This document shows, piece after piece, positions 18,637 through 38,656 of a DNA stretch of 48,279 bases. Source of the DNA: Candidatus Woesearchaeota archaeon (GTDB lineage: Archaea; Nanobdellota; Nanobdellia; Pacearchaeales; GW2011-AR1); the NCBI GenBank assembly GCA_964604715.1, contig CAZRZR010000002.1, positions 1-48,279 on the forward strand, given 5' to 3'. The notes under the pieces are model-generated. The model saw nothing but the letters and a program-made list of their open reading frames with translations, had not been told where the DNA came from and ran no database searches. Each line of letters starts with the position of its first letter. Position 1 is the stretch's first letter. Both the position numbers and the translations under genes were made by a program.

Positions 18637-18645
18637 TTTTTTCAA

Positions 18646-19019: not shown

Positions 19020-19379
19020 ATGGCATCAAAGACTAAAACACGCGAGATAACTCTGGTAGATGAGAAAGGCACATTCTCTTTATTGTTCAAAAGACTATAT
19101 GGGGAAAAAGAAGAGCTTAATTTCGAAGGTTTAGCGGCTCTTCGTGCCGTTCTTTCCAATGAAAAGGCGAGAATTATGCACACCATCAAAACCAAAAACC
19201 CTCTTTCAATATATCATCTTGCAAAATTGCTCGGAAGAGATTTTAAATCAGTAAATGAAGACATTAAGTTATTGCAGCGTTTTGGATTCATTGAATTAGT
19301 TTCTGAAAAAACGGGGAAAAGACAACGCTTGAGACCTTTACTGAGCGTAGAGTCCATAAAGATAGAAATTAAGGTTTAA
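19020..19379 (+). CDS. winged-helix transcriptional regulator (HVO_A0114/antitoxin-like HTH family, tentative)
   Basis: 119 aa. LRAVLSNEKARIMHTIKTKNPLSIYHLAKLLGRDFKSVNEDIKLLQRFGFIELV...GKRQRLRP is a wHTH with a C-terminal beta hairpin. Its stop overlaps the stop of the convergent pilin-like gene by 4 nt. Confidence 0.65.
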   Translation: MASKTKTREITLVDEKGTFSLLFKRLYGEKEELNFEGLAALRAVLSNEKARIMHTIKTKNPLSIYHLAKLLGRDFKSVNEDIKLLQRFGFIELVSEKTGKRQRLRPLLSVESIKIEIKV

Positions 19380-19885
19380 GAGCATACTTCTAGTGTGGTG
19401 TGAATAGTGCCGCCCTCAGAAGGCTGAAGCTCACTAGCGCCCCGTAAGGTGCGTCCAGAGGTACAATTTCCATAACTAAAGGCCAGAATAGGCATCCTCT
19501 CAGTACTTCCATTATAAGGCCAGTAAGAAGAGCTAAAATTATATCCTACAAGAGGCCTATCTTGCCCTATATTCAACCCTTGTTTAATAAGCAAGGGTAA
19601 TGTTTCATTAAGAATTTGACAGGCTGATCTTTGATCTACACACGTACTTCCCTCTCTACATTCATTAAACAACTCCTTAACTCTTGCATGTTCTTGTGTT
19701 CTAAGACTACAATCTGTAGTATATTCTAGGGAACTTGCAAGGAATTGTTGTACTGTAACGCTCTTTCGAGTCTCAGGTGTAGAGTGTAGATTGAATGCGA
19801 GAAAAATAAGCATGACAATTGCAAGAAGTATCACTATAACTACAAATCCTACTATCTCTTCTTGTCCCTTTTTCATCGGTTTCAT
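19376..19885 (-). CDS. type IV pilin-like protein (class III signal peptide), P4
   Basis: The N-terminus MKPMKKGQEEIVGFVVIVILLAIVMLIF has a basic-Gly site then a hydrophobic helix. It has 6 Cys in the globular part. ATGA overlap with the upstream gene. Confidence 0.7.
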   Translation of the reverse strand: MKPMKKGQEEIVGFVVIVILLAIVMLIFLAFNLHSTPETRKSVTVQQFLASSLEYTTDCSLRTQEHARVKELFNECREGSTCVDQRSACQILNETLPLLIKQGLNIGQDRPLVGYNFSSSYWPYNGSTERMPILAFSYGNCTSGRTLRGASELQPSEGGTIHTTLEVCS

Positions 19886-20403
19886 GCCGAGTTTACTCCC
19901 ATAACAATCTTTCCTAACTCGCAGTGCGTCTCAGAGTAAATAGAATCAAATCTACATAAAGCAACGAACGCTTCTTCACTAGTATAATTGCTTTTTTTAT
20001 TTATCAGAGTTATTGTGTTACACGAAGGGTAATTTGCCCGAGTACATTCAATAGTCTTGTTATCAGAAGGATATACTTTCTTTATTTGTAGCTTTCCGAT
20101 GTTGTTCCCCCAAAATCCAGTGTAGCTTGTAATGTTTTTCAGGGCAAACACTTTATCTTCATCAACACAGCTTGCACAATCATCAACCGTCCAAGCAAAC
20201 TCAGGAGAGGCAGACATTTTTCTAACGAGTTCTTGGGCTTGCTCGTGACGTATGTCTGTTGCTGCAGACTTCAGTGAATTCAATTTGAAAGAAAAATAAA
20301 AAAGCGCCGCAAGTCCAAAAAGGAGTATAAATGCTACAAGTACAAAAGCCATCTGCTGTATCTTTAGCTGTCCTTTAGAAGAGCGGGCAAATAAGTTTTT
20401 CAT
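19882..20403 (-). CDS. type IV pilin-like protein (class III signal peptide), P3
   Basis: N-terminus MKNLFARSSKGQLKIQQMAFVLVAFILLFGLAALFYF. Cys-containing head domain. Overlaps the upstream gene by 29 nt. Confidence 0.65.
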   Translation of the reverse strand: MKNLFARSSKGQLKIQQMAFVLVAFILLFGLAALFYFSFKLNSLKSAATDIRHEQAQELVRKMSASPEFAWTVDDCASCVDEDKVFALKNITSYTGFWGNNIGKLQIKKVYPSDNKTIECTRANYPSCNTITLINKKSNYTSEEAFVALCRFDSIYSETHCELGKIVMGVNSA

Positions 20404-21304
20404 TTTGATTGGAAAGTTGTTCGGACTCTACGACGAGTGAACTCAATGCGATTCGATTATCTTTTAGATGAGCTGAGTAGGCTTGCAGTTCCGAAGCCAT
20501 GTTAGAAGAGCATCCTTGAGCCGAAAGGGCATTAGTTTTCCCAATATAGACTGATGCAAGTTCGTTAGCACGCTTTCTTAACCGAGTAAGTTGACAGTTG
20601 TATATATCAGGATCCGAGAAAATAGCAGAGTAGAGTAAAGGGCCGTAGTAATCTAAATTTTTCCTTTGGAGAGTGACTTTTCCAGACAAATCACTATTTT
20701 GAGAAACACTGACATTGCAACCAGTCCCAGAAAAACATACGCTTATGCTATCTTTCTTGCAACCAGTCTTGGTTTGACTAGTGCTAATAAGAGGCACGTT
20801 CCATGAGGCAATATCTGAAGCAACATCCTCAGGAGGTTGTACAAAACAATAGTCCTTATCTATGACAATAATCATATCTCCTATTTTATAAGGTAAATTA
20901 ACTGGCTGGACAATAAGATAAAATGCCTGTCCTTGAACTGTTTCTTGAGAGAAAATATACTTATTTGAAAAGCTTGCCGGAGTGCCTGCATCATTCCACG
21001 TTTTTCCAAACGAATTGCGGACGCTAACTTGTAATTGTTGTAAACCAAAAGTGCCTTCTACATTACATATATTCCTCAATCGCGTTTCATCGGGAAATAC
21101 TAGAGGGTATGTTTTACTCGTTTCTAGATTAGTTTCTACAGGATTAAGAATAACCCCCAATTGGGCTGCGACTTTAGTATTATACTCGCGTGAGCTTGTA
21201 TCAACAAGTTGCGTAGCGGTATAAACAGCAAGCGATATTATTGCTATACCTACAAACAAAGCAAAAATCCATGCAAAACTAAACTCAAATCCTTTGTGGT
21301 TCAT
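20375..21304 (-). CDS. type IV pilin-like protein (class III signal peptide), P2
   Basis: N-terminus MNHKGFEFSFAWIFALFVGIAIISLAVYTA. 309 aa with several Cys. ATGA overlap with the upstream gene. Confidence 0.7.
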   Translation of the reverse strand: MNHKGFEFSFAWIFALFVGIAIISLAVYTATQLVDTSSREYNTKVAAQLGVILNPVETNLETSKTYPLVFPDETRLRNICNVEGTFGLQQLQVSVRNSFGKTWNDAGTPASFSNKYIFSQETVQGQAFYLIVQPVNLPYKIGDMIIVIDKDYCFVQPPEDVASDIASWNVPLISTSQTKTGCKKDSISVCFSGTGCNVSVSQNSDLSGKVTLQRKNLDYYGPLLYSAIFSDPDIYNCQLTRLRKRANELASVYIGKTNALSAQGCSSNMASELQAYSAHLKDNRIALSSLVVESEQLSNQNEKLICPLF

Positions 21305-21777
21305 AGAGGTTTTAATAGCACGAGGCTATCTTCGCTGTTCTTCTCAAGCGAAACTGTTGCCTTGCCCTTACTTGTTTTTATGCAAAAGAACGTCGAAAAG
21401 CGCACGTGCTTAAGATTAGCATATTTGACACTACAAGAGGAAGGGGAAATATAATAGAAGAGATTTGCATCTCTTCCTTCATACCTTTTCAGGATATTAT
21501 ATTCTGGTTTATTCTTTGCCTGTGTTACATCGCCCATACAAATTTCATCCACTGATCCAGGAATAACTCCCGTAAATGTATCGTGCACGCTGTCAGAATT
21601 CCATGCATCGTCTATCTTGACCTGTAAATCTCTTGCATATAAACCTAATTCAGTGCATTGCTTGAGTTGTAAAAAATACCTTATTGCATACACTGCCGTT
21701 CCGAGTATTGCAGCAATAATAATAATCGAGAGTATCATTCCAAAAGAGAGCGATATATCTCCTTTTTTTCTCATCAT
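21301..21777 (-). CDS. type IV pilin-like protein (class III signal peptide), P1
   Basis: The N-terminus MMRKKGDISLSFGMILSIIIIAAILGTAVYA resembles the archaeal pilin QxSxExxxL-type motif region. It starts 3 nt after the stop of the 884-aa gene. Confidence 0.7.
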   Translation of the reverse strand: MMRKKGDISLSFGMILSIIIIAAILGTAVYAIRYFLQLKQCTELGLYARDLQVKIDDAWNSDSVHDTFTGVIPGSVDEICMGDVTQAKNKPEYNILKRYEGRDANLFYYISPSSCSVKYANLKHVRFSTFFCIKTSKGKATVSLEKNSEDSLVLLKPL

Positions 21778-21780: not shown

Positions 21781-24435
21781 TTAGGTAAGCGTGGATGCTC
21801 CCACGACAATTGAACATGCATTAGGGCTTGGTTCGTTACCCCAGTCATCTCTACACTTAATGAAATAGCTTTGTTGTGGTTTCCAAGGTGTAGCGTGAAC
21901 GCCTCGCTCTTGCGAATTCAAAAGAAGCATATTAATTCCTTCTTCAAATACAAAATTACAGCTTGAAAGCGAATAAGAGCACTGAGCGTCTTCATTTGTT
22001 ACTAGCTTTAGTGCATCAGATTCTTTATACACACGAGTTACTTGAGGTGCAGATCTATCGGTTAATATTGTGAACGAGGTGTTCTTTTGATCAAGGTTTC
22101 CTCCTGCATCAATACATCTGAAGAAATACGTATAACTTCCACTAGGCAGGCTCAAGATTTGTTTGTGCTTCCAATCATTAGTTTCAAACATAGTAACATA
22201 ATCTCCTTCTTTTCCGGTCGGGCTAAAGTAACAGGTCGCCTTCCCTTCGTCTGCACCATCGTCAGTAGTCGCCGTAAGGTTAACTTGAACGATGGAGGTG
22301 CTCCCAGTAATTGTGCTATTAGGGCCAACTGCGAGTATAGAAAGGCTTTGTGTACCTTTGAGAGTAAATGCATAACTTTCCTGATTGGTATTTCTCTCGT
22401 TTTCAGGTTTTAATGGCTGATCTTTACAACGGAAGAAGAAAGCATTGTCTTCCTTGTCCTTTATGCCTCCAAGTGTCGTCGTACATGGATATAGTTGCTG
22501 TGCATTCTGTTGGTAGACGTGAGATGAACAGCTCATGTTATTTTCCATCAGGTCAAATCCCTTGTCTTGTTTGCTCCATTTACATTCAGAAGGTTCGTTT
22601 ACAAATAACGACAATGTGGTATTTTGTACACCAAACGTAACTGCGCTTCCTGAAGTTATTGATGTGCTCTCAATAACAGGAGGCGTACTATCTGGGCTCT
22701 TATCCACGCACATATTGAATACAAACTCATCTTCATTTACATTTCCATTTGCGTCACGACATCGTACATAGAAGTTGTACAATCCTTCAGAAGGTAATTC
22801 AGGAGATTCAGCAGTCACAGAATCGGGAGAAGGCAACCTTAATTTTTCAGTATGATTGTAAGCAAACAAATTGCTTTCTCCAAAGTAGAACTGCATTTCA
22901 TCAAATGTTTTGTTGCTTATAATATCTATTTTACATTGCGAAGGCTCATCTGTCCTCAAACCAAACTCTAATGCAGTGAATGGCTGTATACATCCGTCAG
23001 TAGATTGAGAATATTTTATTTGTGTTCCTCGCGAAGGTGGTCTGCCGCGCATATCCGTGTACACGTGTTTCTCAGTCAGCACTTCTTTCCAGGGAGTTAT
23101 CAATGGGGACTTGACGTCGTTTCGCGCAATCCAAACACAACGTTCTTGAGTCGTACCTTTATTGACAATATCACATGCTTGTCCTAAAGACTTACATCGA
23201 TACTCTGAACATGGCTTAAGAGGATCTTGATTACATCTCTCACAATCAGCTCCTCCAAGTGGTGCTTCCCAAGGCAAACATTGCAATGTAACTACTTTCT
23301 GTTTTTCTTTCTTGTATAAAAGAATAAACACGACTGCAGCTATACCAACACCAATTAATGCTGCCTGAGGCCCAGTAAGTGTCTGCGTCCATATTCTTTG
23401 ATTTCCTAAGGTGCCTGCACCTTTTCCAAACAATCCATAAATTGCCTGTCCGCCCATAATGCCTGCAAATGCTGCTGCACTTATCGCATTTGTCAGTTTA
23501 GAATCTCCCCCAAACAATGGAACAAGTAATTGTACTGCTCCCACAACAAGAAGAGACCACGTCAGCCCATCAGCTAAATGCCCCAAGAAAAATCCGGGAA
23601 CGTCAATTAATCCGAATAAGCTTCCTTGATATTCGCTTGTACCAACTGCTGATTTTATTAATGCCCCACTTTTCGTATCATAAACTTCCAAGGCCTTTCC
23701 ATCCTTGTCAAGCAGCGTCGTAGTGGTATCCGTTACTCTTACGTCAGCAACATTTTCAAAACCTGGCTTGCCTTGGATATCCTTCAAACTTTTTATGCTA
23801 CTTAAAGCCGGAGCTTCCTGGCCGAAGTGTGCATATTGGTAATCAGAAACTTGCGTCTTAGGAACATAATTAAGATCTCCGCCCTCTAGAGCTTTCTGAG
23901 CAGTGGCTTTATCTACAGGATAGAGGGTTCCTTTGGAATCTATAAGTCCAGCATCGGTATATTTTAACGTTGTACCGGTTGGAATTGTTGATGATCCCAC
24001 TTGAAGAGGTTTAGTTGTACTATACATATTTGTTGCACTATTAGGCGGGATAGGTCTTTTTGTAGAAAGAAGAGATGCTGCTTGAACTAAACCTCCGGCA
24101 GCCCCAACAGGATTAGTTTGTGGAGGAGGAGCAGTTCCAGAAACACTTGGCGCTTGCGATTGAGCAGAAATTGATTTCTGCGCTGCTTCTCGAGAGGTAA
24201 AGAATTTTCCACTTTGCAACTGTGCATCACTTGGCGTACCGCCAATATGTTCTGCGACATAAGGTTCTCCAGTAGTAGGGTCTGTTGTAGTGAAATAATA
24301 ATGTGTAGTATCGGCAGCAGAAACAATATTTGTTTGTCCAATAATAAATGAGATTGCTATAGTCGAAAGAACAATTAGGAAAATTTCACTTAATGCAGCG
24401 GAACGTAACACGTTTGAACCCTCTTTCGACATCAT
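21781..24435 (-). CDS. large modular surface/membrane protein G2 (Cys-free N-domain, Gly/Ala-rich TM block, four Cys-pair beta modules)
   Basis: 884 aa. The N-terminal anchor is RSAALSEIFLIVLSTIAISFIIG. The central hydrophobic Gly-rich block runs LLVVGAVQLLVPLFGG...AAAFAGIMGGQAIYGLFGKGAG...ALIGVGIAAVVFILLY. The C-terminal 520 aa are collinear with the C-terminus of 28343..32182 (TLQCLPWEAPLGGADCERC...FYVRCRDANGN...FFFRCKD...YFFRCIDAGGN...YFIKCRDDWGN). It has its own TATA, TTTATAAAT at 24454-24462. Confidence 0.8.
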   Translation of the reverse strand: MMSKEGSNVLRSAALSEIFLIVLSTIAISFIIGQTNIVSAADTTHYYFTTTDPTTGEPYVAEHIGGTPSDAQLQSGKFFTSREAAQKSISAQSQAPSVSGTAPPPQTNPVGAAGGLVQAASLLSTKRPIPPNSATNMYSTTKPLQVGSSTIPTGTTLKYTDAGLIDSKGTLYPVDKATAQKALEGGDLNYVPKTQVSDYQYAHFGQEAPALSSIKSLKDIQGKPGFENVADVRVTDTTTTLLDKDGKALEVYDTKSGALIKSAVGTSEYQGSLFGLIDVPGFFLGHLADGLTWSLLVVGAVQLLVPLFGGDSKLTNAISAAAFAGIMGGQAIYGLFGKGAGTLGNQRIWTQTLTGPQAALIGVGIAAVVFILLYKKEKQKVVTLQCLPWEAPLGGADCERCNQDPLKPCSEYRCKSLGQACDIVNKGTTQERCVWIARNDVKSPLITPWKEVLTEKHVYTDMRGRPPSRGTQIKYSQSTDGCIQPFTALEFGLRTDEPSQCKIDIISNKTFDEMQFYFGESNLFAYNHTEKLRLPSPDSVTAESPELPSEGLYNFYVRCRDANGNVNEDEFVFNMCVDKSPDSTPPVIESTSITSGSAVTFGVQNTTLSLFVNEPSECKWSKQDKGFDLMENNMSCSSHVYQQNAQQLYPCTTTLGGIKDKEDNAFFFRCKDQPLKPENERNTNQESYAFTLKGTQSLSILAVGPNSTITGSTSIVQVNLTATTDDGADEGKATCYFSPTGKEGDYVTMFETNDWKHKQILSLPSGSYTYFFRCIDAGGNLDQKNTSFTILTDRSAPQVTRVYKESDALKLVTNEDAQCSYSLSSCNFVFEEGINMLLLNSQERGVHATPWKPQQSYFIKCRDDWGNEPSPNACSIVVGASTLT

Positions 24436-24483
24436 TTAGTGAACAAATCTTTGTTTATAAATATTCTCGGTATCTATTCGTCG

Positions 24484-25125
24484 TCAAGGTTTGATAGAAA
24501 AATCGCTTTCTGCATAGGGTGCATTATTTGATCGCCATGTCGCTTTGTAATTCCCAGGTTGGAACTGCCTGCAATTATATATTAATATATGAAAGGAAGT
24601 GTCTATTGTAGCATTAACTGTGGACACATCTGTATGACTGTCAGTATTTGAAAGAGTAAATTTTATATCTCCAGGGTTAGTCTTGTTTATAGCAGGAATA
24701 TAAACGCCAATAGCAAGGTTTTCATTTCTAGAAAAATCCCTCTTAAGTCCTTTAATTTCTACAGCTGCGATAGCTCCATCCTTATCTTCATCAACCCATT
24801 CATTACAAACGAAACTGCGGCCATTTTGAGGAATAAATGCAGTTGAGCTTATAATCGGTGTTGGGGTGGTATATGAAGGCCCGTAAGCAAGAGCGTAATC
24901 GGGAACGTCAGAAGAAGATGAAGTAAGGGTAACGCTATCTCGTTCTGCACCTCGAGCCGCTTGAGCAACGCCAGCAGCAGATAGTATATCGCCCACTGGT
25001 CCTCCAATAGCTGCGCCACTAAGTATGGCCAATCCACCAGGTTTAGGTTTAGCAAATTCTTCACAACCAGTCAGACTTACTAGGCCAGCTAGTCCTGTCG
25101 CCATAAGACTCTTTCTGATATTCAT
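24484..25125 (-). CDS. putative lipoprotein with canonical EF-hand-type Ca2+ loop
   Basis: Lipobox-like LVSLTGCEE after MNIRKSLMATGLAG. DEDKDGAIAAVE (aa 112-123) fits DxDxDGxIxxxE exactly. A TATA-like ATATTTAAATAAT lies about 27 nt upstream. Confidence 0.7.
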   Translation of the reverse strand: MNIRKSLMATGLAGLVSLTGCEEFAKPKPGGLAILSGAAIGGPVGDILSAAGVAQAARGAERDSVTLTSSSSDVPDYALAYGPSYTTPTPIISSTAFIPQNGRSFVCNEWVDEDKDGAIAAVEIKGLKRDFSRNENLAIGVYIPAINKTNPGDIKFTLSNTDSHTDVSTVNATIDTSFHILIYNCRQFQPGNYKATWRSNNAPYAESDFSIKP

Positions 25126-25181
25126 ATCCTGCAGAGGAGTTCGTATTATTTAAATATTTCTGTTACTCTAGAATGGTAACT

Positions 25182-26009
25182 TTACTTGAGTTTACTCGTT
25201 CCATCAAATTCAGAACGCATGCGCTCAAGATCCTTTCGTTCTTGCTCAAGTCGTTGCTCGGTTTCTTCTATCTTTTCCTTCTTTTTTATGCGCTCAAGAT
25301 CTGCGCTAGCTTCTCTGATCTTCCTTTCCGCATCTTCAATTTTAGCTCGCATATCTTCCTTAGGTGCTGGTTGGTTAATAGCAGGCGATAGTCTCGGCAA
25401 ACTCTTTTGGGCAATAGACTCAGGATTGCTTGGAGCTTTTGGTGTTCCTCGAATCTTAGCTCGCACAGCAAATGAAGCAACAAGAAGACCTACAAGCAAT
25501 ACAGCGCCGATAAGATAATATTTATAACTGCCTAATCTCCCATTCTCCGACGTAGCAAAACCAGTAAGCCCTGGAGCAGTAGAATTGGTGCTCTCAAGGG
25601 TTGTTGAAGCAGTATTGTTGCTCTCGTTTACGTCTGAGCTAATATTTTGCTCCTTGTAAATGGCTGGTGCTTCAGCATCATGTTTTTTAGGTAATTGAAC
25701 ATAAATAGGTTCTCCAGCAGTGAACCCTCTGAATCGTTCATAGTAGGCTGTCTCACCGCCTATTTTAACATACACGGCAAGATCAAATTCTTCTTTATCC
25801 CCATTGTAAGTTACTGAAACGTTACCTGTATCGCCCGCAGGCAAGTCATAGAAACTCTGTACGGCGTAGTATGTATCTGCTGTTTCAAGAATAGAAACAG
25901 TCACTGTAACGCCTTGTAAGGTTTCAACATTAATTTGTGTGCTTGCGGCAACAGTAAAAGGGGTAATAAGAATGATTGCGAGCATCAACACTATTTTTTT
26001 ATTCATCAT
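25182..26009 (-). CDS. type I membrane protein: signal peptide, beta-rich ectodomain, S/T/N linker, TM, coiled-coil cytoplasmic tail
   Basis: Signal peptide MMNKKIVLMLAIILITPFTVAAS, TM YYLIGAVLLVGLLVASFAV, and tail EDMRAKIEDAERKIREASADLERIKKKEKIEETEQRLEQERKDLERMRSEF. Confidence 0.75.
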   Translation of the reverse strand: MMNKKIVLMLAIILITPFTVAASTQINVETLQGVTVTVSILETADTYYAVQSFYDLPAGDTGNVSVTYNGDKEEFDLAVYVKIGGETAYYERFRGFTAGEPIYVQLPKKHDAEAPAIYKEQNISSDVNESNNTASTTLESTNSTAPGLTGFATSENGRLGSYKYYLIGAVLLVGLLVASFAVRAKIRGTPKAPSNPESIAQKSLPRLSPAINQPAPKEDMRAKIEDAERKIREASADLERIKKKEKIEETEQRLEQERKDLERMRSEFDGTSKLK

Positions 26010-26049
26010 TTTCTAACTAAAGCCGTATTTTTAAATATTAACTTTTCAG

Positions 26050-27552
26050 CTAACCTCCGTTTATAGTTACTTGTAAGCTATTCTTGTATCCTTTTTTGCT
26101 CAGATAATTTACCTTTGAGCCACAATCCCCTAGGGCTTGACATACTTCTCCATACTTTGCTTCCCAGCCCGGTTGCAAACATTCGCAGTTCTCGGTACAT
26201 TCCTCTCCCCCTAGTAATCCTTTCTCAAATTTCACAACACATACTTTGTTTCCAGCTCCGCATACAATTTTAGATTCTTCACTATTCCAGAAAGCAAGCC
26301 CAGGAGAGTTTTTAGGCAAACATACTGCATTAATCGTCGCATTTCCTAAGGTAACTCCCTCTTTCCAGAAGCAGTCGCGTCTATCAGGGTTTTCGCAATC
26401 TTCTTCAGCTGTCTGGGCTAAGCAATCTTGCCACCGATTAACTCTACACGCTGCCTGTGAAAAGCTTCCTTCAGATGTTTGAATATCTTGTTGTACGCAT
26501 TCCTGTGCTCTAAAATCATCGCATGGTTCAGTTAATACTTCTCCATTCATGCAAATACGTCTGAAGAACCCGCTCCCAACTGTGCTTTTCCCAATAGAAT
26601 TCTTTTTATCATCTGCTATGCACCAGCTTTCTCCATGTTTTCTATCCTTGCCATTCTCATCGGTACAAGAAAGATCTGCACAAATAAGACTTCCAAAACG
26701 AGGTTTGGTTGCTCCAAGAGTCGTAGGCCTGCAATAACTTCCTAAAAGATAATTACAATTCCCGCAGCTTGCACTGTTGGCGTTTGCCGAACCAGGGCTG
26801 CAACTTTCAGATTTAGTTTTGACATTTGTCCAATAATCTTTATCATTTGTTTTTGAAGAGTCGTATATGTTAGCTGCATTTCCACATGTATCTGTATAAT
26901 AGATTTCATCTTTGCCCGGTAAACAAGTCGTTTTTGTGGATGGGCCACAAATGGTGCCTAGTTCTTCTGCAGAACAGAGTTTATCTTTGTAAAACGTACC
27001 AGCAGAGTCGCTTTTATTCAACCTTTCAGAACTACCGTCGCATTCGGCTCGCGTTGTAAATTTACATGTCTTTTGAAATTCGAACTCATATACGCAAGCA
27101 CCCCTGTCTTGTTGTTGAACAGTAGCAATACATGCAAGTTCATTAGATATTGTTTTATCATAATTTGTTTGTAGACCTAAGAATGAAGAAAGTTTTTTAC
27201 ATCGTACAAGTGATGTAAATGCTGCTTGATCGCCTAAAATACAACATCCAAGTTGACATTGGGGAGGCGTTTGCTCACTCCAAGTGCCTCCGTTATTATT
27301 ACATACAAGCTGTGGCGTATTATCTAAGCAAGTGCCTTCATTTGAGTCATAACAGGTGCCTGCTTTACAATAACTAGTAGATTCACAACTCGTTGGAACT
27401 TGACGTGAACTTGGATCGCACGCATCTGCAGGTACATTCTGACAAAAAGCGCCAGTCTTTGTCTTTTCACAACACACGGTAGCAGTCAGATCAGCAGCAC
27501 TAACAAAGCTTAGCAGGAGAATAAGAAACATAAGACCAAATAAATACCTCAT
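26050..27552 (-). CDS. secreted Cys-rich protein C1 (paralog of the N-terminal ectodomain of G1)
   Basis: Signal peptide MRYLFGLMFLILLLSFVSA (the ATG at 27552 forms an ATGA overlap with the upstream stop). About 50 Cys. Collinear matches to G1 include GCCILGDQAAF/GCCLIGNQALY, CGNCNYLLGSYC/CGNCNYLAGSVC, DLSCTDENGKDRKHGESWC/DLSCTDENGNKRKHGESWC and ACRVNRWQDC/ACRANQWQLC. No TM anchor. Confidence 0.85.
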   Translation of the reverse strand: MRYLFGLMFLILLLSFVSAADLTATVCCEKTKTGAFCQNVPADACDPSSRQVPTSCESTSYCKAGTCYDSNEGTCLDNTPQLVCNNNGGTWSEQTPPQCQLGCCILGDQAAFTSLVRCKKLSSFLGLQTNYDKTISNELACIATVQQQDRGACVYEFEFQKTCKFTTRAECDGSSERLNKSDSAGTFYKDKLCSAEELGTICGPSTKTTCLPGKDEIYYTDTCGNAANIYDSSKTNDKDYWTNVKTKSESCSPGSANANSASCGNCNYLLGSYCRPTTLGATKPRFGSLICADLSCTDENGKDRKHGESWCIADDKKNSIGKSTVGSGFFRRICMNGEVLTEPCDDFRAQECVQQDIQTSEGSFSQAACRVNRWQDCLAQTAEEDCENPDRRDCFWKEGVTLGNATINAVCLPKNSPGLAFWNSEESKIVCGAGNKVCVVKFEKGLLGGEECTENCECLQPGWEAKYGEVCQALGDCGSKVNYLSKKGYKNSLQVTINGG

Positions 27553-28346
27553 GAAAGTACTCCATACCCTTGTGGCCAAACTAAACTTCGGGTTGCAAAT
27601 CTAAATTTTTCTTGGCTTATCACGTTTCTTAATGTGTATAACGTGTCATCGCCCTTTTTGAGCTTTTCTATAACGAGGTTTGGATAATATCTAACATATA
27701 ATGAAGTATCAGAATCTCCAAGCGTAGACTCAAATTGTACAATACTTAATGCAGTCGTTAATAAATCATAGCTTTGGCTTGGCAGTCTAACTACAAATTT
27801 ACTAAATGTCTGTTTGCTATCTTTTGAAATAGTCATCGCTGCGTTGACATCTACTATTACCGCTTCAGGCACAATACTGACGTTTACCGAAGGTTGAGCA
27901 ACCGTAACTTGATATCCTTTTTGTTCATAGTTCTGTTGTAAAGACTGAATACAATTGCGAGCAGTCTGCGTTAATCGCTGTTCTAATTGCTTTTCAACAT
28001 GTGAAACCAGTAACGGTTGTTGTACAAGACAAGGCTTATAATTTTCGCTTGTATAACAGAGATAAGAAAATTGTAAATCATTGTTAAGTACATAACTTGT
28101 CGGGGTATAGTCGCCTCCGTGTTCCATAATAATAGGTAACGCTTTTTTTAGTTCTGGTTCTATACATTGGCGTACATAGCTTGAAGGGTCGACTTCATTG
28201 GTAAAGACAGTCAAATTAGGTCGCACCAAGAACCAAATCACTGCTGCAATAATTACAACAGCGACAATTACGAATATCGCAACTTGACCTCTTTTTTGCA
28301 TACTTTCAAAAGATCTAGTTTGTTTATAACGTTTTCTAGATATCAT
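27549..28346 (-). CDS. type IV pilin-like protein (class III signal peptide), A2 (paralog of A1)
   Basis: The class III-like N-terminus is MQKRGQVAIFVIVAVVIIAAVIWFL. It is collinear with 32182..32937 (YLCYTSENYKPCLVQQP vs YLCKNINYYEPCINQYP, and so on). The ATG at 28346 forms an ATGA overlap with the G1 stop. Confidence 0.75.
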   Translation of the reverse strand: MISRKRYKQTRSFESMQKRGQVAIFVIVAVVIIAAVIWFLVRPNLTVFTNEVDPSSYVRQCIEPELKKALPIIMEHGGDYTPTSYVLNNDLQFSYLCYTSENYKPCLVQQPLLVSHVEKQLEQRLTQTARNCIQSLQQNYEQKGYQVTVAQPSVNVSIVPEAVIVDVNAAMTISKDSKQTFSKFVVRLPSQSYDLLTTALSIVQFESTLGDSDTSLYVRYYPNLVIEKLKKGDDTLYTLRNVISQEKFRFATRSLVWPQGYGVLS

Positions 28347-31300
28347 GTTATCCTCGCTTGCTGTACACTTATGCATGCACTAGGATTATTGAAAACATCT
28401 TTACAAATAATATAATGTTTGACATCTGCCGCAAAGTTGCTCGTGTGTGTTAATTCCTGTCCTTGCATTAGCGTTCCATTTGCAAAATTGAAGCTACAGG
28501 AATTCAAACTAAATGCGCATTGGGATTTTTCATTGGTAATAATAGTTAGTCCGTTCAAATTGTATGCTCGGGTAATCATCGGCCCTTTATCGTCTACTAT
28601 CACACTAAATGAGGCGCTACCTCCTGCGTTGTTACCTGCAGCATCTTCACACGTTATTGGAATTGTATAATTGCCCTCAACAAATATATTCAGGTTTCTC
28701 TGTCTGTGCGTGTCTGCCCCAGTTTCAAAGAACAGCACTGATTGAGTTCCCCATTTGAAGGAACACGTCCTTGAGAGTTCAGGAACTCCTCCGCGCGTTA
28801 CCACTGTGAGATCTATTTTAGCAGGCAGCCCATTAGTGGAAATTATCTTTCCTTGAGGGTCTATAGAAACAATACTTAGTGGCGTTTGTGTCTTTCTCAG
28901 TACGTAACTTACACTCTGTTGATTTGCATTTCTTCCCGTCGCATTCTCCAAAAACGGTTGATCGTTGCAACGCACATAGAATGTTTTATCTCCAGTCGCA
29001 GGCGTAGGCAAGGTCATATTACATGGCCATCCCAGCAACGTAGACTCTGCAAGCTCTCCAGCACACGTCGCGTTATGCGTCATTGCATTGTAAGCAACGT
29101 CTTGTTCATTCCATCTACATTCCGCAGGCTCATTCAGAAAGAACTTTACGTTTTTCGAACTAGCGTTCAGCGAAACATATCCTGGACTTGCTGGACTAAA
29201 CCCACTTATTACAGGTGGAGTTCTATCAGGCTCAGGTGAGACGCAGAAGTTAATTGCATATTCTTGCACGTTCTTTCTTCCAGCAGCATCGGTACATCTA
29301 ACATACAAATTAACATTTCCGCTTTGATCAGGCTCAAATAGTTCGGGGTCAAATACTTCATCAGAAGCATGCTCTGCGTTTTCTGCATTCCGATTGTCGA
29401 TTGCCTGTTTGCTTGGAATAGTAAACGTCATAGTATGATTTTTTCTGAATAAGCTGCTTTGTATTCCTCCAGCTTGATGGAAGAAAGTATTCATATCATC
29501 ATAACTAGCTGTGTGTTTATTCGTCACCTTACATTGTGACAGTTCGTTTGTCGCAATACCCAGCCTTATCTGATTAAACACTGGAACACATCCATTTGGT
29601 TCCGAGCCTTGTAAATGATATCCCTGACCAGATACTTGAGTGTATTGATATCCGCCCAATAAAACAGACTTATCTTCGCTAATAATTGGAGGAGTGACAT
29701 CGTTAGGGCTTGAATCGACGCACTTCCCTTCAGCGCTATCATCGACAAAAGTACAACTTTGTCCTAAACTCTGACATTTATAGCGTGAGCACGGCAATCC
29801 ATCCGCTCCGCATTGAGTACACTTCGCTCCTCCCAAAGGCGGCTGCCATGCCATACACTGGAACGTTACCTTTGTCTCACTCTTCTTTCCTATGCCTAGG
29901 AATTTCAATACAAAAATAATTATTACAACTACTGCTACGATAATAAGCCCTATTCCTGTTGCAGCAAGACTTCCTGCAACCACGAGTGCTCCTCCATTTA
30001 CAAGTCCATATCCAATAAACGCTCCTCCAACAGCTCCCGCTGCGATCAATGCGTACGTTACTGCGGGAGGCAAACCTGCATCAATTCCTAATGCATGAAT
30101 AAGGTAAGCAGTTCCAGCGGCACCTATAAGTGCTCCAGCAGCTGCTCCTGCAAAAGCTCCTATTCCTGGACTTGCTGCACCTCCGCCTGCAAGGTTTGCC
30201 GCTTGTGTTGGGCCGACCGCTCCTGCTAGAGCAGTTGTATCAACTGCAGCAGCTGCTCCTGCAGAACCAATCCATCCAGCATACACAGCATATGCTAACA
30301 ATATTCCGCTTGCTCCGCTAATTTTAGCGAAGTTAGTCAGCATTTTTCCATAACTATTTTTAACATTTGGGTCTTGTAAATTTCCTATGAGACCATAAAG
30401 CGAAACAAGCTCGCTTTCATTTAGCGGCGACACATGTTGTCCTTCTTTTGGTGTAGTCAGTAGTTTAAGTGCGGCAATATAACTTTGTCCTACTTTAGGC
30501 GCGTTTGTAACGCGGTAACCGTCATCAGTAAAATCGCCTTCTATAGAAACTTTACCGCCACAATCGCCCATGCTCATGCACAAGTTATTCATAGCCTCGG
30601 TGAATGCAGCAGTCCTACATACTTTATTATATTCTGATTTTCCAAATAACTTTTTCACTTTCACGTATGTACATGGTGCAGTAGCCATACCACAAATTGT
30701 TTCGGCAACTTCTCCACCATTTGGAACGCCTAAATCAAATCCAGGAGGGTTGCGAGGAACGCATACGTTAAACGCAAACGTATCTTTTCCGCCAGAACGT
30801 AAATCAGTACCTTTCAATACGCAATCAGTATATTTGCTGCATTCTTTTTTTACTAGCTCAGCAGCAGTTCCAGGATCCGGAGCATCTTTACCTGCATCGT
30901 TTGCCTGCACACACAATTGCCATTGATTAGCGCGACATGCGGCAGAAGAAAACTTTGCTTGCTCGTCCCGTGACTCAACACATAAGCTATTTCTAGCTAC
31001 GCCGCAGGTTTCAGTTCTTACCTCTCCATTGATACACGATTTACGGTACTGCTCGCTTCCTGGCAAGTCAACACTTCTTTGTAAGTTTCCTAGACCTTGA
31101 ACACCAATCTGGCTGTCAAATGCACACCAACTCTCTCCGTGCTTGCGTTTATTACCGTTCTCATCGGTACAAGACAGATCTCTGCATACAAAATCTCCTA
31201 CAGAAGGTTTATCATCAATTCCCACACGCTGTGTACCACAAACACTTCCTGCTAAATAATTACAATTTCCACAGCTTGATTGTTTACTTAATGGATTTAA

Positions 31301-32182
31301 GCTAGTTCCCAACTCGCAACTCTGATTCTTTGCCAACACAATACCATTATTCCAACTTTGATCCTTATGAAGGGAGTCATAAATATTTTCTCGATTACCA
31401 CAACTATCAAACCAATATACTTCATCTTTACCGTCAACACACCCGGTACGCTTTTGTTTAACGCACGCAGTGCCTAGGCTAGGGTTTGAGCAAAGCATTC
31501 CTTTGTAAAAGTTACCGCTTAGAGTAGTGCACTGTTCTTTGGTAGTAAACTTGCAATTATTTTTATCAAAATCAACTGTTTCCAATACACAGGCTCCTTC
31601 TTCCCCTTTATTAGCCATCGCGATACATTGTAACTCGCTGTCGACGGGGGTAAATATAATAGGTTGCCCTAATCTATCTCTGAGTGTGTTACACTGCTGT
31701 TCCGTCTTGTAAAGTGCCTGATTTCCTATAAGGCAACAGCCTTCTCGACATTCAGTTATTTCACTTTTCTGACGAGCATCCCATGATCCTCCTTGTTGCT
31801 CACATGCAGCTTTTGGAGAATTCGGAGAACATGTCCCTTCAGTTGCATCTAAGCACGTTCCCAGTTTACATTCCGCAAAGTCTGCTCTCAATCCTGGAAA
31901 ACAACTGGTAGTACATAGGCTGTTACAGATCTGTGCTTGGTACTCTTGACATCGTGTACCATTTTTATCCAAGGCGCAAGTCCATAACCCTTCTTCAGCA
32001 GCAGAAACTAGGTTGCCTCCGAATACGTTAATGAACCCTGTTCTTATCTTTTGTATTAAGCTGCTTTCGCTCATTTCAGAATAAATCGGAATAATTTCTT
32101 GAGCGTCGCTTAAAATATAGGCAAAGGCAACGCTAGCACAAACAATCAAGAAGATTTCAAATAATGCAATGTTTTTCCTCAT
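28343..32182 (-). CDS. giant modular surface/membrane protein G1 (C1-like Cys-rich ectodomain + Gly/Ala-rich TM block + four Cys-pair beta modules)
   Basis: About 1279 aa from the ATG at 32182 (TAATG overlap with the A1 stop). The N-terminal anchor RKNIALFEIFLIVCASVAFAYIL shares ALxEIFLIV with G2. Roughly aa 70-560 are paralogous to C1. The central block is ILLAYAVYAGWIGSAGAAAA...GAFAGAAAGALIGAAGTAYLIHALG...LIIVAVVVIIIFVL. The C-terminal ~500 aa are paralogous to G2. Confidence 0.85.
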   Translation of the reverse strand: MRKNIALFEIFLIVCASVAFAYILSDAQEIIPIYSEMSESSLIQKIRTGFINVFGGNLVSAAEEGLWTCALDKNGTRCQEYQAQICNSLCTTSCFPGLRADFAECKLGTCLDATEGTCSPNSPKAACEQQGGSWDARQKSEITECREGCCLIGNQALYKTEQQCNTLRDRLGQPIIFTPVDSELQCIAMANKGEEGACVLETVDFDKNNCKFTTKEQCTTLSGNFYKGMLCSNPSLGTACVKQKRTGCVDGKDEVYWFDSCGNRENIYDSLHKDQSWNNGIVLAKNQSCELGTSLNPLSKQSSCGNCNYLAGSVCGTQRVGIDDKPSVGDFVCRDLSCTDENGNKRKHGESWCAFDSQIGVQGLGNLQRSVDLPGSEQYRKSCINGEVRTETCGVARNSLCVESRDEQAKFSSAACRANQWQLCVQANDAGKDAPDPGTAAELVKKECSKYTDCVLKGTDLRSGGKDTFAFNVCVPRNPPGFDLGVPNGGEVAETICGMATAPCTYVKVKKLFGKSEYNKVCRTAAFTEAMNNLCMSMGDCGGKVSIEGDFTDDGYRVTNAPKVGQSYIAALKLLTTPKEGQHVSPLNESELVSLYGLIGNLQDPNVKNSYGKMLTNFAKISGASGILLAYAVYAGWIGSAGAAAAVDTTALAGAVGPTQAANLAGGGAASPGIGAFAGAAAGALIGAAGTAYLIHALGIDAGLPPAVTYALIAAGAVGGAFIGYGLVNGGALVVAGSLAATGIGLIIVAVVVIIIFVLKFLGIGKKSETKVTFQCMAWQPPLGGAKCTQCGADGLPCSRYKCQSLGQSCTFVDDSAEGKCVDSSPNDVTPPIISEDKSVLLGGYQYTQVSGQGYHLQGSEPNGCVPVFNQIRLGIATNELSQCKVTNKHTASYDDMNTFFHQAGGIQSSLFRKNHTMTFTIPSKQAIDNRNAENAEHASDEVFDPELFEPDQSGNVNLYVRCTDAAGRKNVQEYAINFCVSPEPDRTPPVISGFSPASPGYVSLNASSKNVKFFLNEPAECRWNEQDVAYNAMTHNATCAGELAESTLLGWPCNMTLPTPATGDKTFYVRCNDQPFLENATGRNANQQSVSYVLRKTQTPLSIVSIDPQGKIISTNGLPAKIDLTVVTRGGVPELSRTCSFKWGTQSVLFFETGADTHRQRNLNIFVEGNYTIPITCEDAAGNNAGGSASFSVIVDDKGPMITRAYNLNGLTIITNEKSQCAFSLNSCSFNFANGTLMQGQELTHTSNFAADVKHYIICKDVFNNPSACISVQQARIT

Positions 32183-32937
32183 TAGAATCCTGCAGGCAAT
32201 GCACACCCCCGTATAGCGATATTCATCACGTTCTCTGTCGGTATATGTTTGATAGTATAAACCTTTGTGCTGTCAGAAAACGTTTTGAGTTTAATATTAA
32301 AGTCGGAATAAATAAGACTATAGCCGACGTACTCAAAATAACAATACTGAGCTTCCTGAGAAGCTATTTCCTGCGCTACCGATCCCAAGTCATAAACCGG
32401 GCTTCGTACAAAATTTGAAAATTGATCATATGTCTTAGTCTCGCTGCTTTTCGTAGCTTTAAGATGTGCAGGTACTCGAGCCTCAACGATTCCTGGTTTA
32501 AGAATAAGTTGTACTGGTTCAGCACTCATAGACACATCATAATTTCTTTTTTCCAGCTCGCTTTTTAACGTGCTAATGCATCCAGCAACGTCATCTTTCA
32601 CAGCGCCAGAAAGTTCTTGTTGAAGGTGAGTAATATAGCGAGGGTATTGATTAATGCAAGGCTCATAATAATTTATATTTTTACAAAGATAAGTCGCCTT
32701 TACGTTCTCACTTAATTTATAGTCGGTAGGATCTATCAAGCCGCCTTGTTCAAGTAAAAGCGGAGCCTTATCATTAATTGCTTTTTTCACGCAGCTGTCC
32801 ATGTATTGCTCAGAATCAAATCCTTGTGCAAAAGAGATAATTGGCTTATCTTGCCTTAAGAATAAAGCTAATCCTATCCCAATAACAAGAATGATTGCCA
32901 CAATAACGAATATGGCCATCTGTCCTTTCTTATTCAT
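32182..32937 (-). CDS. type IV pilin-like protein (class III signal peptide), A1
   Basis: N-terminus MNKKGQMAIFVIVAIILVIGIGLALFL. 251 aa with 6 Cys. Its start overlaps the RHH gene end by 8 nt. Confidence 0.75.
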   Translation of the reverse strand: MNKKGQMAIFVIVAIILVIGIGLALFLRQDKPIISFAQGFDSEQYMDSCVKKAINDKAPLLLEQGGLIDPTDYKLSENVKATYLCKNINYYEPCINQYPRYITHLQQELSGAVKDDVAGCISTLKSELEKRNYDVSMSAEPVQLILKPGIVEARVPAHLKATKSSETKTYDQFSNFVRSPVYDLGSVAQEIASQEAQYCYFEYVGYSLIYSDFNIKLKTFSDSTKVYTIKHIPTENVMNIAIRGCALPAGF

Positions 32938-33073
32938 TTTTATCCTCCATAATGAATCTCTTGAGGGCTTCTTCTATAATATGAGACTTATTACGATGTT
33001 TTCCTTTTTTTAGAATTTTTTCTAGTCCTTGATCAGTTATTGGATCTATAGTCGCGGAAATTCTTATTTTCAC
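32930..33073 (-). CDS. ribbon-helix-helix (CopG/Arc-like) DNA-binding protein; small ORF absent from the supplied track
   Basis: My translation (GTG start) is VKIRISATIDPITDQGLEKILKKGKHRNKSHIIEEALKRFIMEDKNE, 47 aa. It shows an N-terminal beta strand (KIRISATID) followed by two helices with the typical S-H-IIEEAL pattern. It is the first gene of the cluster. Confidence 0.6.
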   Translation of the reverse strand: MKIRISATIDPITDQGLEKILKKGKHRNKSHIIEEALKRFIMEDKNE

Positions 33074-35558: not shown

Positions 35559-35560
35559 AT
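35551..35560 (+). promoter_or_regulatory. TATA box of 35581 gene, embedded in the last primase codons
   Basis: CTTTATAAAT contains the primase TAA stop. Its centre is about 26 nt upstream of the ATG at 35581. Confidence 0.4.
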
Positions 35561-35580
35561 GCGTATCTCGTATGAATTCC

Positions 35581-37453: not shown

Positions 37454-38656
37454 ATGAAAAAGTTTAGTCTTATTTTATTTTTAATGATTCTATTGCCGCT
37501 TACATCGGGGTTAAGTTCAGATCTTCATACAACTTATCAACCTGCCGAAACAATGCTAGTTGAGTTACAAGGATCTATTTTAGAAGGAATTCCAAAAGAA
37601 AATGTTTTCTTTCTGAGAGGTCATGTTCAAACAGTAGTTGAGTATGACTTAAAAAAATTAGGGAACCGTTATTTCTTATATGCCGTTGCACCTTTAGCTG
37701 AAAATAACTTCACTTTAGAAATAAAAAACGTTCATACTACTATCAACGGTCAGCCAAAGGTGATTGATTATGTTCAAAATTTCTCAGTAATTGGTACAAT
37801 TGCCCCATATACTCTCAAACCTTCTTTTGTTCTGACTCCCTCAGATTTCACTGTTATGATAATTTCTAATAAAGACGAGCAACAAGAAATTTCAATTGGC
37901 AATGCAAACGAAACTCAGCAAACTATCAACCCTGGTGAAAATCAAATTTCCTTTTCAATAGATCAATTTAACCAAGGGCTAACTATCTTGCCAGTTGGGA
38001 TGTATGAATTAGCAGTATATAATCAGAAAGCAGTTCAAGTAGCCGAATCGCGTCATCTGAGATTAACTCCTGGATATATCGAAGAAAGATTTTTTTATGG
38101 GGGAGAACGAATTATCTCGTTTAGTATTGCAAATATTGGTCAAACAGATTTATCGGATATAACGCTTGATTATAATGTTACTCGCTATAAAATAACGCCT
38201 GAAAAGATTACCAAGTTACGCGTTAATGAAACTGCCATATTTAATCTAACACTGATAAGTAAAAATGCTTCTATTGATGACCTATTAAGAATTAGTTCAT
38301 CCAACGAAACCTTAGATATGCCTATCAGAATAAGTTATAGCTCTAATCTTACTTCAACCAACACCAGTTCTTCTAATGTAAGCGCCCCTGCAACAGGTTA
38401 CTATTGCAGAGAATTAAGCGGAACTCTATGTCAAGCAGCCGAAGTCTGTTCAGGACAAACGCGAGATTCTCTTGATGGCAATTGTTGTATTGGAACGTGC
38501 ACAGCACAAAAAGCAACGAGCTACGCATGGATAGGATATCTTTTAGGAGCCCTTATCTTAGTGCTTATTGTAATAATTGGCGGGCGTTATCTCAAATCTA
38601 AGTCCAGCGGAAATATCTTTCAGAAACGAGTTGCTCAAGTGGAGCGAAAAATTTAG
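37454..38656 (+). CDS. surface protein with beta-sandwich domains, one Cys-knot module and C-terminal TM
   Basis: Signal peptide MKKFSLILFLMILLPLTSG. A CARDB-like segment FSIANIGQTDLSDITLDYN...AIFNLTLIS. The Cys module is YCRELSGTLCQAAEVCSGQTRDSLDGNCCIGTC, and the TM is YAWIGYLLGALILVLIVIIGG. Confidence 0.75.
   Translation: MKKFSLILFLMILLPLTSGLSSDLHTTYQPAETMLVELQGSILEGIPKENVFFLRGHVQTVVEYDLKKLGNRYFLYAVAPLAENNFTLEIKNVHTTINGQPKVIDYVQNFSVIGTIAPYTLKPSFVLTPSDFTVMIISNKDEQQEISIGNANETQQTINPGENQISFSIDQFNQGLTILPVGMYELAVYNQKAVQVAESRHLRLTPGYIEERFFYGGERIISFSIANIGQTDLSDITLDYNVTRYKITPEKITKLRVNETAIFNLTLISKNASIDDLLRISSSNETLDMPIRISYSSNLTSTNTSSSNVSAPATGYYCRELSGTLCQAAEVCSGQTRDSLDGNCCIGTCTAQKATSYAWIGYLLGALILVLIVIIGGRYLKSKSSGNIFQKRVAQVERKI

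Follow-up and report, generated by a model that had tools for sequence, protein, structure and literature searches.

An apparently ancient set of fused and split paralogues in an archaeal cluster of pilin-like genes

We analyzed a locus on a 48,279-nt stretch of DNA from a Candidatus Woesearchaeota archaeon (contig CAZRZR010000002.1; this whole stretch is referred to as the window), in which the genes named A, G, C, X and P below are all encoded on the minus strand. The locus encodes a long protein, G1, and two shorter proteins, C1 and G2, that are paralogous to different parts of it. As judged from comparisons across genomes, it is very likely that the ancestor shared by the sampled lineage already had the copies of G1, C1, G2 and the A genes, and that they have been kept since under purifying selection. 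The best overall explanation of the cluster, which mixes this evolutionary statement with an association between the proteins and a role at the cell surface, has a probability of about 60% in our estimate. The genes that carry the argument, and their parts, are as follows (positions in the window).

32182..32937, minus strand: A1, 251 aa, type-IV-pilin-like, with MNKKG/QMAIFVIV followed by a globular domain with conserved Cys
28343..32182, minus strand: G1, the full-length ("fused") protein, 1279 aa from the ATG at 32182 (the open reading frame, ORF, 28343-32206 has 1287 aa)
32093..32182, minus strand: N-terminal membrane anchor of G1, about residues 1-30, consensus KK.IAlFEI.LLV..SFAFSYiI.ES
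30512..31978, minus strand: cysteine-rich ectodomain of G1, residues 69-557 counted from the ATG, paralogous to C1
29888..30355, minus strand: Gly/Ala-rich membrane block of G1, about residues 610-765, four hydrophobic segments in the family hydropathy profile
28346..29887, minus strand: C-terminal module of G1, residues 766-1279, a 7-Cys juxtamembrane knot and then about four immunoglobulin (Ig)-like domains, paralogous to the C-terminal part of G2
27549..28346, minus strand: A2, 265 aa, pilin-like paralogue of A1, signal ...KRG/QVAIFVIV, start overlapping the G1 stop (ATGA)
26050..27552, minus strand: C1, 500 aa, signal peptide ...LLSFVSA/AD, without membrane anchor, start overlapping the A2 stop
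21781..24435, minus strand: G2, 884 aa, with an anchor (residues 1-40), a variable Ser/Thr/Pro-rich linker (41 to about 270), a Gly/Ala-rich membrane block (about 271-378) and a C-terminal part made of a 7-Cys knot and tandem Ig-like domains (379-884)

The similarity between these proteins is extensive and collinear. Using the numbering of the ORF 28343-32206, residues 77-565 of G1 aligned with residues 37-499 of C1 (BLASTP, 36% identity, E = 7e-78), and residues 660-1278 of G1 aligned with residues 260-874 of G2 (33% identity, E = 6e-93), an alignment that takes in the membrane block. The pilin-like proteins A1 and A2 present 26% identity over 217 residues (E = 9e-27). The first-pass annotation had quoted ten motifs, six shared by G1 and C1 and four shared by G1 and G2, and a regular-expression search found each of them once per protein and in the same order in both. 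Its descriptions of the N-terminal part of G1 as collinear with C1, and of one paralogous pilin-like gene in front of each of G1 and C1, were therefore accurate. Homologues of G1 number 459, the top 120 of which all measure 1199-1386 aa, and C1 orthologues are 493-565 aa long with 56-100% identity.

Such similarity could be a compositional artefact of cysteine-rich sequences, and the high Cys content of the proteins (43 Cys for C1, 65 for the G1 ORF of 1287 aa) is all that speaks for this explanation. Relative to 100 composition-preserving shuffles, Smith-Waterman scores reached z = 80 for the N-terminal part of G1 and C1, z = 166 for the C-terminal part of G1 and G2, and z = 36 for A1 and A2. 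The comparison of C1 with G2, which served as a negative control, yielded z = -0.3, and these two proteins are mutually unrelated. In addition, the BLASTP E-values given above are composition-adjusted, and C1 and G1 share 35 invariant Cys columns along with many invariant columns of other residues. Because the z scores lie far above the composition-preserving shuffles, cysteine richness alone is not the cause of the similarity, and the alignments present collinear conserved blocks. We give no weight to a compositional artefact; on sequence evidence, the similarity of G1, C1 and G2 is homology.

The relationship of G2 to G1 extends beyond the membrane block and the C-terminal module, to which the first-pass annotation had confined it. 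The N-terminal profiles of G1 and G2 (first 48 residues) align with each other (hhalign, probability 97%, E = 4.8e-11), the consensus of G2 being k.iA.sEIFLLv.stFAFaFIiges..VSA, whereas the same profile of G1 did not align to the signal peptides of C1. Because the N-terminal anchor is common to G1 and G2, their homology covers the segments before and after the ectodomain. This rules out that G2 is simply the C-terminal half of G1: the claimed collinearity stands, but G2 appears to be a G1 whose ectodomain is replaced by a variable Ser/Thr-rich linker. Hydropathy identified a signal peptide ending in VSA and no second hydrophobic segment in C1. Since this is an ordinary cleavable signal peptide in a protein without membrane anchor, C1 is secreted, and it represents a stand-alone copy of the cysteine-rich ectodomain. 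As a separate observation, the anchors of G1 and G2 (32093-32182 and 24316-24435, minus strand) have, some five residues inside their hydrophobic stretch, a conserved Glu (or Gln) that recalls Glu5 of bacterial type IV pilins. Prepilin-type cleavage of these anchors is doubtful, as the residue before the hydrophobic stretch is variable.

The age of these copies was assessed from a scan of one genome per species (GTDB), in which 464 stretches encode a relative; the best 80 of them correspond to 79 distinct loci. Statements on these 79 loci cover those with enough flanking DNA, and orthologues were typed by their best bit score against the paralogues of the window. [quoted passage not shown] The order PCNA-A1-G1-A2-C1-(variable)-G2-P1-P2-P3-P4-(HTH)-S-layer, where HTH denotes a helix-turn-helix gene, recurs wherever the DNA suffices. 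The A1-G1-A2-C1 part was found in every one of these genomes, and G2 usually lies downstream. Orthologues sorted without exception: upstream A genes were of the A1 type (81/81) and downstream A genes of the A2 type (75/75), and the ORFs were G1-type when long (82/82), C1-type when 400-700 aa (73/73) and G2-type when 590-1000 aa (43/43). This arrangement holds in genomes whose PCNA is about 51-55% identical to that of the window. The synteny and the clean sorting of orthologues down to this level of PCNA identity indicate that the duplication is ancient.

The first-pass annotation had instead suggested a recent duplication. A recent duplication with rapid diversification of surface-interaction genes, which would have produced the fused and split editions in this genome, is extremely improbable in view of the conserved arrangement and strict orthologue sorting. 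The paralogy itself is real, and three segments (the G2 linker, the X2 gene and the G1 loop 640-677) do vary quickly between strains, but the paralogues are only 26-36% identical to each other and C1 is the slowest-evolving gene of the cluster.

Some parts of the locus are less constant. Every locus with sufficient DNA downstream has C1, and at least 43 loci include G2. In a few genomes (L011, L013, L014 and L016) G2 is not located between C1 and P1, and the locus tags of one MAG (AUJ84_00195 for G1, AUJ84_00225 for C1 and AUJ84_03280 for G2) indicate that G2 can lie elsewhere in the genome. The slot of X1, between C1 and G2, is variable: X1 is not conserved in most related loci, and X2 was found in only a few others. 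Locus L066 (CAYGYN010000025.1) apparently carries two consecutive A-G1 pairs, with G1-type ORFs of 1124 and 1261 aa, followed by A2-C1-G2; the A-G unit would then have undergone another duplication that is lineage-specific.

Rates of change differ markedly across the cluster. Relative to the window, C1 has a median identity of 55%, compared with 43% for the ectodomain of G1 and 36-39% for its C-terminal module. C1 ranks first in conservation among the proteins of the cluster, and at deep divergence its identity (41-51%) approaches that of PCNA (50-55%). Where G2 is present, its orthologues have 45-69% identity across the conserved C-terminal portion (about two thirds to 70% of the protein), and the N-terminal third does not align. 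Both C1 and the conserved module of G2 evolve slower than G1. At a shorter timescale, we compared the window with the near-identical strain L083, for which background synonymous divergence (dS) is 0.003-0.05. C1, A2, P1 and PCNA are 100% identical between the two strains. G1 is 97.5% identical, with nearly all changes in residues 640-677 (the Gly/Ala loop), and G2 is 89.6% identical, with changes clustering at residues 42-261 (the linker). X2 presents 78.5% amino acid identity and a dS of 0.53, and its flanking genes are 99-100% identical. Values of dS range from 0.32 to 0.53 in G2 and X2, and the ratio of nonsynonymous to synonymous divergence (dN/dS) is at most 0.29 for all genes. These ratios were computed between the two strains and not between paralogues, for which they are unsuitable because synonymous sites are saturated at 26-36% protein identity. 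They indicate that the paralogous modules are under purifying selection. The diversification typical of surface-interaction genes, as claimed at first, is largely not borne out: the most conserved protein is C1, and rapid change is limited to one loop of G1 and to a patch comprising X2 and the G2 linker (about 23650-25125).

These two variable segments deserve separate mention. The patch at about 23650-25125 (minus strand) has a dN/dS of about 0.25 and looks imported or hypervariable. In the G1 loop (residues 640-677, about 30150-30265, minus strand), nearly every residue differs between alleles that are otherwise 99% identical, with a 4-residue difference in length; compensating frameshifts or slippage in low-complexity sequence could have produced this divergence.

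The presence of the N-terminal anchor of G1 in G2 favors, from the sequences at hand, a fused ancestral form from which C1 and G2 arose by fission. Such a history would start with the tandem duplication of an A-G pair. One G copy would then have been truncated after the ectodomain to give C1, with A2 still in front of it, and a G copy would have lost its ectodomain to give G2, the two losses being complementary. Alternatively, C1-like and G2-like proteins may have been separate ancestrally, and G1 may result from the insertion of a C1-like ectodomain into a G2-like copy, between the anchor and the membrane block. Domain insertions do occur, the linker of G2 sits exactly where G1 has its ectodomain, and the slower evolution of C1 and G2 is expected if the original function was theirs and G1 is derived. 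However, a fusion requires an in-frame internal insertion as well as a separate duplication of the A gene, and the tandem duplication of a two-gene unit followed by truncation explains the A1-G1/A2-C1 pairing more simply. Moreover, no split-only lineage was seen among the 79 loci or the top 150 representative clusters. We therefore regard fusion as unlikely, although it keeps an appreciable share of the probability. A point against fission is that no single-copy outgroup was found, which leaves the shared anchor to carry the polarity of the change. The search of a representative library returned 5228 matches at E <= 1e-3, and the 150 matches listed were all of the fused G1 type with no outgroup among them. 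In this search, sequence weighting gave a G1-like profile of 1104 positions, hence the G1-type matches.

The remaining genes of the cluster and its neighborhood were annotated as follows.

32930..33073, minus strand: 47-aa ORF, ribbon-helix-helix (RHH)/CopG-like, stop overlapping the A1 start
25182..26009, minus strand: X1, 275 aa, with a signal peptide, a single membrane helix and a coiled-coil tail rich in Lys and Glu (hydropathy)
24484..25125, minus strand: X2, 213 aa, lipoprotein-like N-terminus, part of the strain-variable patch
21301..21777, minus strand: P1, 158 aa, pilin-like (KKG/DISLSF...), conserved N-terminal motif, syntenic
20375..21304, minus strand: P2, 309 aa, pilin-like (HKG/FEFSFAW...), start overlapping the P1 stop, syntenic
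19882..20403, minus strand: P3, 173 aa, pilin-like (SKG/QLKIQQMAFVLVA...), conserved N-terminal motif, syntenic
19376..19885, minus strand: P4, 169 aa, pilin-like (KKG/QEEIVGF...), start overlapping the P3 stop, syntenic
19020..19379, plus strand: helix-turn-helix protein of the HVO_A0114 family, divergently oriented (PF25212, E = 7.5e-18), at the same place in relatives
16012..18645, minus strand: S-layer-like protein, 877 aa (PF05124 S_layer_C, E = 8.5e-9), syntenic

In the direction of transcription, the order is the 47-aa ORF, A1, G1, A2, C1, X1, X2, G2, P1, P2, P3 and P4, with PCNA and primase upstream of the 47-aa ORF and A1. G1 most likely starts with the ATG at 32182, where start and A1 stop overlap as TAATG. 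The starts of A2 and C1 are the ATGs at 28346 and 27552, both of which overlap the upstream stop (ATGA); all three agree with the gene calls in relatives. Stops and starts overlap throughout RHH-A1-G1-A2-C1, G2-P1-P2-P3-P4 are tightly packed, and such tight spacing is widespread in relatives. TATA-like boxes, which were read by eye because a scan for sigma-70-type promoters and terminators is not meaningful for an archaeon, were seen only before X1, X2 and G2. The spacing shows two packed, putatively operonic units, (RHH)-A1-G1-A2-C1 and G2-P1-P2-P3-P4. This qualifies the earlier view that the locus holds a fused and a split edition of the same module. A full-length G1 indeed coexists with separate paralogues C1 and G2, but the two editions are not equivalent units, since C1 belongs to A1-G1-A2-C1 and G2 stands with P1-P4.

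The 47-aa ORF matched RHH_1 at a borderline level (E = 6.9e-4, 19.9 bits against a cut-off of 20.5), and a gene of 47-49 residues is called at the same place in relatives. Using tblastn, it was detected in 30 of the 75 loci with enough upstream DNA, and 28 of 31 matches lie directly upstream of A1. This small protein is a probable first gene and regulator of the operon. A1, A2, P1-P4 and their orthologues begin with a short run of charged residues up to a [KR]G, after which comes a hydrophobic helix of about 20 residues; this corresponds to the class III (prepilin-like) pattern. In A1 orthologues, the N-terminal [KR]GQ and the hydrophobic helix are conserved.

The cysteines are informative about the location and the contacts of these proteins. 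We defined a conserved Cys column as one with Cys in at least 90% of about 120 orthologues. By this definition, C1 has 43 conserved Cys columns, the ectodomain of G1 has 41 (plus 2 found in 62% of orthologues), and the C-terminal modules of G1 and G2 have 21 each, which in G2 are all of its conserved Cys columns. Each Ig-like domain contains two or four conserved Cys. Among orthologues, 10 of 12 Cys-loss patterns involved two Cys lost together, and only two were single losses. The pairs lost together are 86/94, 240/261, 248/315, 393/416, 516/520 (46 sequences), 861/976 (4 sequences) and 1225/1266 in G1, and 68/92, 203/267 (10 sequences) and 445/449 in C1. The pair 248/315 of G1 is homologous to 203/267 of C1, so that the same pair was lost in both paralogues. 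The paired losses suggest that disulfides are formed in both modules, and we infer from these patterns that both lie outside the cell.

The topology of the C-terminal module is the part of this conclusion for which a rival needs to be considered. Four hydrophobic segments were found in the Gly/Ala block of G1 and three in that of G2, for which AlphaFold2 (AF2) also gives three helices. The C-terminal Cys/Ig-like module could be cytoplasmic behind a three-pass block, in which case G1 and G2 would connect a domain or linker on the outer side with a module on the inner side, for instance for anchoring or signalling, and C1 and G2 would be on opposite sides of the membrane without contact through these modules. 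In both families, the only Lys-rich flank directly follows the last, most hydrophobic helix, which by the positive-inside rule places the C-terminal module in the cytoplasm, contrary to our interpretation. The three helices predicted for G2 point the same way, and the CxxC motif of the 7-Cys knot could bind zinc. In contrast, the C-terminal Cys bear a disulfide signature (861/976 and 1225/1266 were lost in pairs, the former in four orthologues), the Ig-like domains each keep an even number of conserved Cys, the arrays of these domains with a D..GN motif (Big_13-like) and their Foldseek matches are all of the kind found in extracellular proteins, and the block of G1 has four hydrophobic segments. 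N-glycosylation sequons were uninformative on this question, as they were fewer than expected in C1, which is certainly secreted, and at expectation in the C-terminal modules. Based on the paired Cys losses and the type of domain, the C-terminal module is probably external and a cytoplasmic location is improbable.

The counts of conserved Cys also bear on the association of C1 with G2. Each half has an odd number of them (43 and 21), and the fused G1 has an even number. Because of this odd count, one Cys per module may lack an internal partner and may form a disulfide between ectodomain and stalk, which would lie within the chain in G1 and between chains in C1 and G2. The parity fits one such ectodomain-to-stalk disulfide but is only suggestive. 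In this scheme, C1-G2 would be the two-chain equivalent of G1 and would probably be in one complex with it. We consider a direct association of C1 and G2, as proposed from the sequences, to be a tentative conclusion whose odds fall slightly short of even. Several points weigh against it. Only two parities are independent, and chance would give this result in about 1 of 4 cases; the unpartnered Cys could be free thiols or metal ligands; C1 belongs to the operon of G1 and not to that of G2, which a few genomes encode elsewhere; and C1 could equally be a partner of G1.

These points can be combined into an alternative without any C1-G2 complex, in which C1 is a soluble or G1-bound subunit, G2 is the base of a structure made by P1-P4, and the fused/split pattern is what remains of duplication and domain loss. 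The translational coupling of C1 to G1 and A2 rather than to G2 is compatible with this alternative, as is the retention of C1 in genomes without G2 at the locus, and paralogous domains often heteromerise, as the G1 ectodomain would with C1. On the other hand, G1 holds the ectodomain and the stalk module in one covalent chain, essentially every genome examined has kept both together, and the odd Cys counts of C1 and G2 would fit a cross-link. The alternative is doubtful in our view and ranks below direct association.

Structure predictions suggest that the two modules are of very different kinds. The AF2 model of C1 (71 sequences) has a mean predicted local distance difference test (pLDDT) score of 83 and is made of mostly short beta-hairpins with few helices. 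A fold search with this model gave no match in the PDB at E < 0.1 and none in BFVD at E < 0.06, and its weak top matches were small disulfide modules (a fibronectin fragment and the F1-G pair of tPA). On the basis of this model, the ectodomain of C1 and G1 is shown to have no detectable structural relative. Reading it as a class II fusogen or archaeal fusexin, a viral glycoprotein or a known adhesin was rejected, as no match to the PDB or BFVD was obtained despite the pLDDT of 83. For G2, the AF2 model of residues 250-884 (pLDDT of 87) predicts three long helices and a cysteine knot followed by beta-sandwich domains. The tail matched tandem Ig, FN3 and cadherin ectodomains and the bacterial grappling hook GhpA (Foldseek, E = 1e-13 to 1e-9, probability 1.0). 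Matches to Big_13 (PF19077) fell below the gathering threshold of 27 bits, with 24.8 bits for G2 and 20 bits for G1, and many G2 orthologues have precomputed PF19077 matches. The tail of G2 is thus modelled as tandem Ig-like domains, which is a generic fold class and not a family.

Scans of all cluster proteins against Pfam and NCBIfam found nothing above cut-offs, G1, C1 and G2 matching no curated family, and literature searches found no description of them. A search of PDB sequences with the G1 profile returned the type III secretion translocator AopB as its sole match (3wxx_B, E = 0.23, 12.3 bits, profile positions 649-759). An AopB/YopB-like translocator was rejected for the Gly/Ala block, as this E-value is not significant and Gly/Ala-rich helices probably drive the match. 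With A1, the same database gave matches at chance level only (GlnR, E = 1.7).

The rest of the window indicates that this region is core chromosome of the archaeon, with genes for FtsZ, the ribosomal proteins L10 and L11, and an M50 peptidase. The S-layer-like gene (16012-18645) and the helix-turn-helix gene (19020-19379) are syntenic with the cluster in distant relatives, and the roughly 17-kb stretch behaves as one cell-envelope region. Beside the primase gene, two proteins of 623 and 400 aa without Pfam family (35542-37413 and 37454-38656, plus strand) are syntenic in distant relatives as well, with 590-623 and 396-400 aa in L001, L002 and L083. Finally, two overlapping ORFs at 39175-40663 (minus strand) encode a staphylococcal-nuclease domain and a lamin-tail domain, respectively. 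They may represent one secreted nuclease with a lamin-tail domain, which would fit nucleotide scavenging by a reduced symbiont.

With regard to function, the six pilin-like proteins would form a short pilus- or pseudopilus-like scaffold that carries or positions G1, C1 and G2 in or through the S-layer. Among possible roles of this pilin-scaffolded assembly, we favor adhesion at the surface or contact with a host cell, in loose analogy to the bacterial minor-pilin/PilY1 tip complex as the nearest parallel, and we put it forward at less than even odds and with less confidence than the association of C1 with G2. Its weak points are that an adhesin for host recognition would not usually be as conserved as C1, that no pilin-related Pfam or NCBIfam match was obtained for the pilin-like proteins at E up to 0.1, and that no gene for an assembly ATPase, TadC/FlaJ or prepilin peptidase was found, either within the 48 kb of the window or within 10 kb of flanking sequence in relatives. 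Concerning the last point, pilin sets encoded apart from the assembly ATPase and TadC genes are common in archaea (PMC4858521). A more far-reaching and rather unlikely possibility is that the cluster, together with the adjacent S-layer gene, encodes an undescribed envelope organelle of Pacearchaeota-type DPANN archaea, a pilin-like scaffold with disulfide-linked G1 and its two-chain twin C1-G2. The cysteine-rich ectodomain, with its new fold, would then be a conserved head for contact or recognition, the Gly/Ala-rich helices would form an oligomeric membrane assembly, and the organelle would be a machine for host contact or exchange. What is new here is a surface apparatus from an archaeon, associated with pilins, that combines a fused/split paralogy with components yet to be characterised; its function we infer.

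Pacearchaeota and their relatives, which are abundant, uncultivated and ultra-small archaea, presumably live attached to other cells. To our knowledge, the proteins that mediate contact with the host are not known for any DPANN group. Our analysis provides a lineage-wide cluster beside an S-layer gene with its parts, its paralogy, a likely disulfide pattern and an operon structure. If the cluster is indeed a contact apparatus, C1, being conserved, secreted and probably exposed, could serve as a target to label or enrich these organisms. In a DPANN-host system imaged by cryo-electron tomography, the proteins of the contact structure are unknown (PMC11329633). Many lineage-specific families of DPANN archaea are membrane-bound or extracellular, and Module 222 is specific to Pacearchaeota and has no function prediction (Castelle et al. 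2021, PMC8204110). This lineage-specific, membrane or extracellular description suits G1, C1 and G2, which are possible members of the module; unlike the present analysis, that paper gives no description of architecture, paralogy or locus.

Several described systems resemble the cluster in part. Euryarchaeal loci related to type IV pili are described as encoding pilins away from the ATPase and TadC genes and as having an S-layer-like gene next to them (Makarova et al. 2016, PMC4858521). The cluster shares these two properties and the class III N-termini with such loci, but G1, C1 and G2 match no curated family, and we assign the cluster to none of the ten described variants. The bacterial minor-pilin/PilY1 operon (fimU-pilVWXY1E) is similar in that small pilin-like genes are packed with a gene for a large surface protein (about 900-1300 aa), and the presumed logic, a small set of pilins presenting a large binding protein, would be the same. 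PilY1 is a soluble beta-propeller/vWA protein. No relation in sequence or fold was found between the two systems, and G1 and G2 are predicted to be membrane-embedded and cysteine-rich with Ig-like stalks; in addition, the organism here is an archaeon and no assembly ATPase or platform gene lies nearby. The Ig, FN3 and cadherin ectodomains (PTP-delta, desmoglein-2, ICAM-5 and KIT, as well as GhpA) resemble the C-terminal module of G2 as predicted strings of beta-sandwich domains, but identity is only 8-14% and TM-scores are low (0.13-0.28), since the match is made domain by domain.

Finally, the locus can be compared with Rosetta-stone (gene fusion/fission) pairs, which serve to infer interactions between proteins. 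Like these pairs, G1 is collinear with two separate and mutually unrelated proteins, C1 and G2, and the separate parts co-occur in genomes. In contrast to them, one genome, and within it one locus, carries both the fused and the split form as ancient paralogues, instead of the two forms occurring in different species, and G2 overlaps G1 at both ends, through the anchor and the C-terminal part, so that there is no clean split into two pieces. The Rosetta-stone inference is limited accordingly: ancient fused and split paralogues lying side by side suggest a mixed complex rather than alternative editions of the same module.

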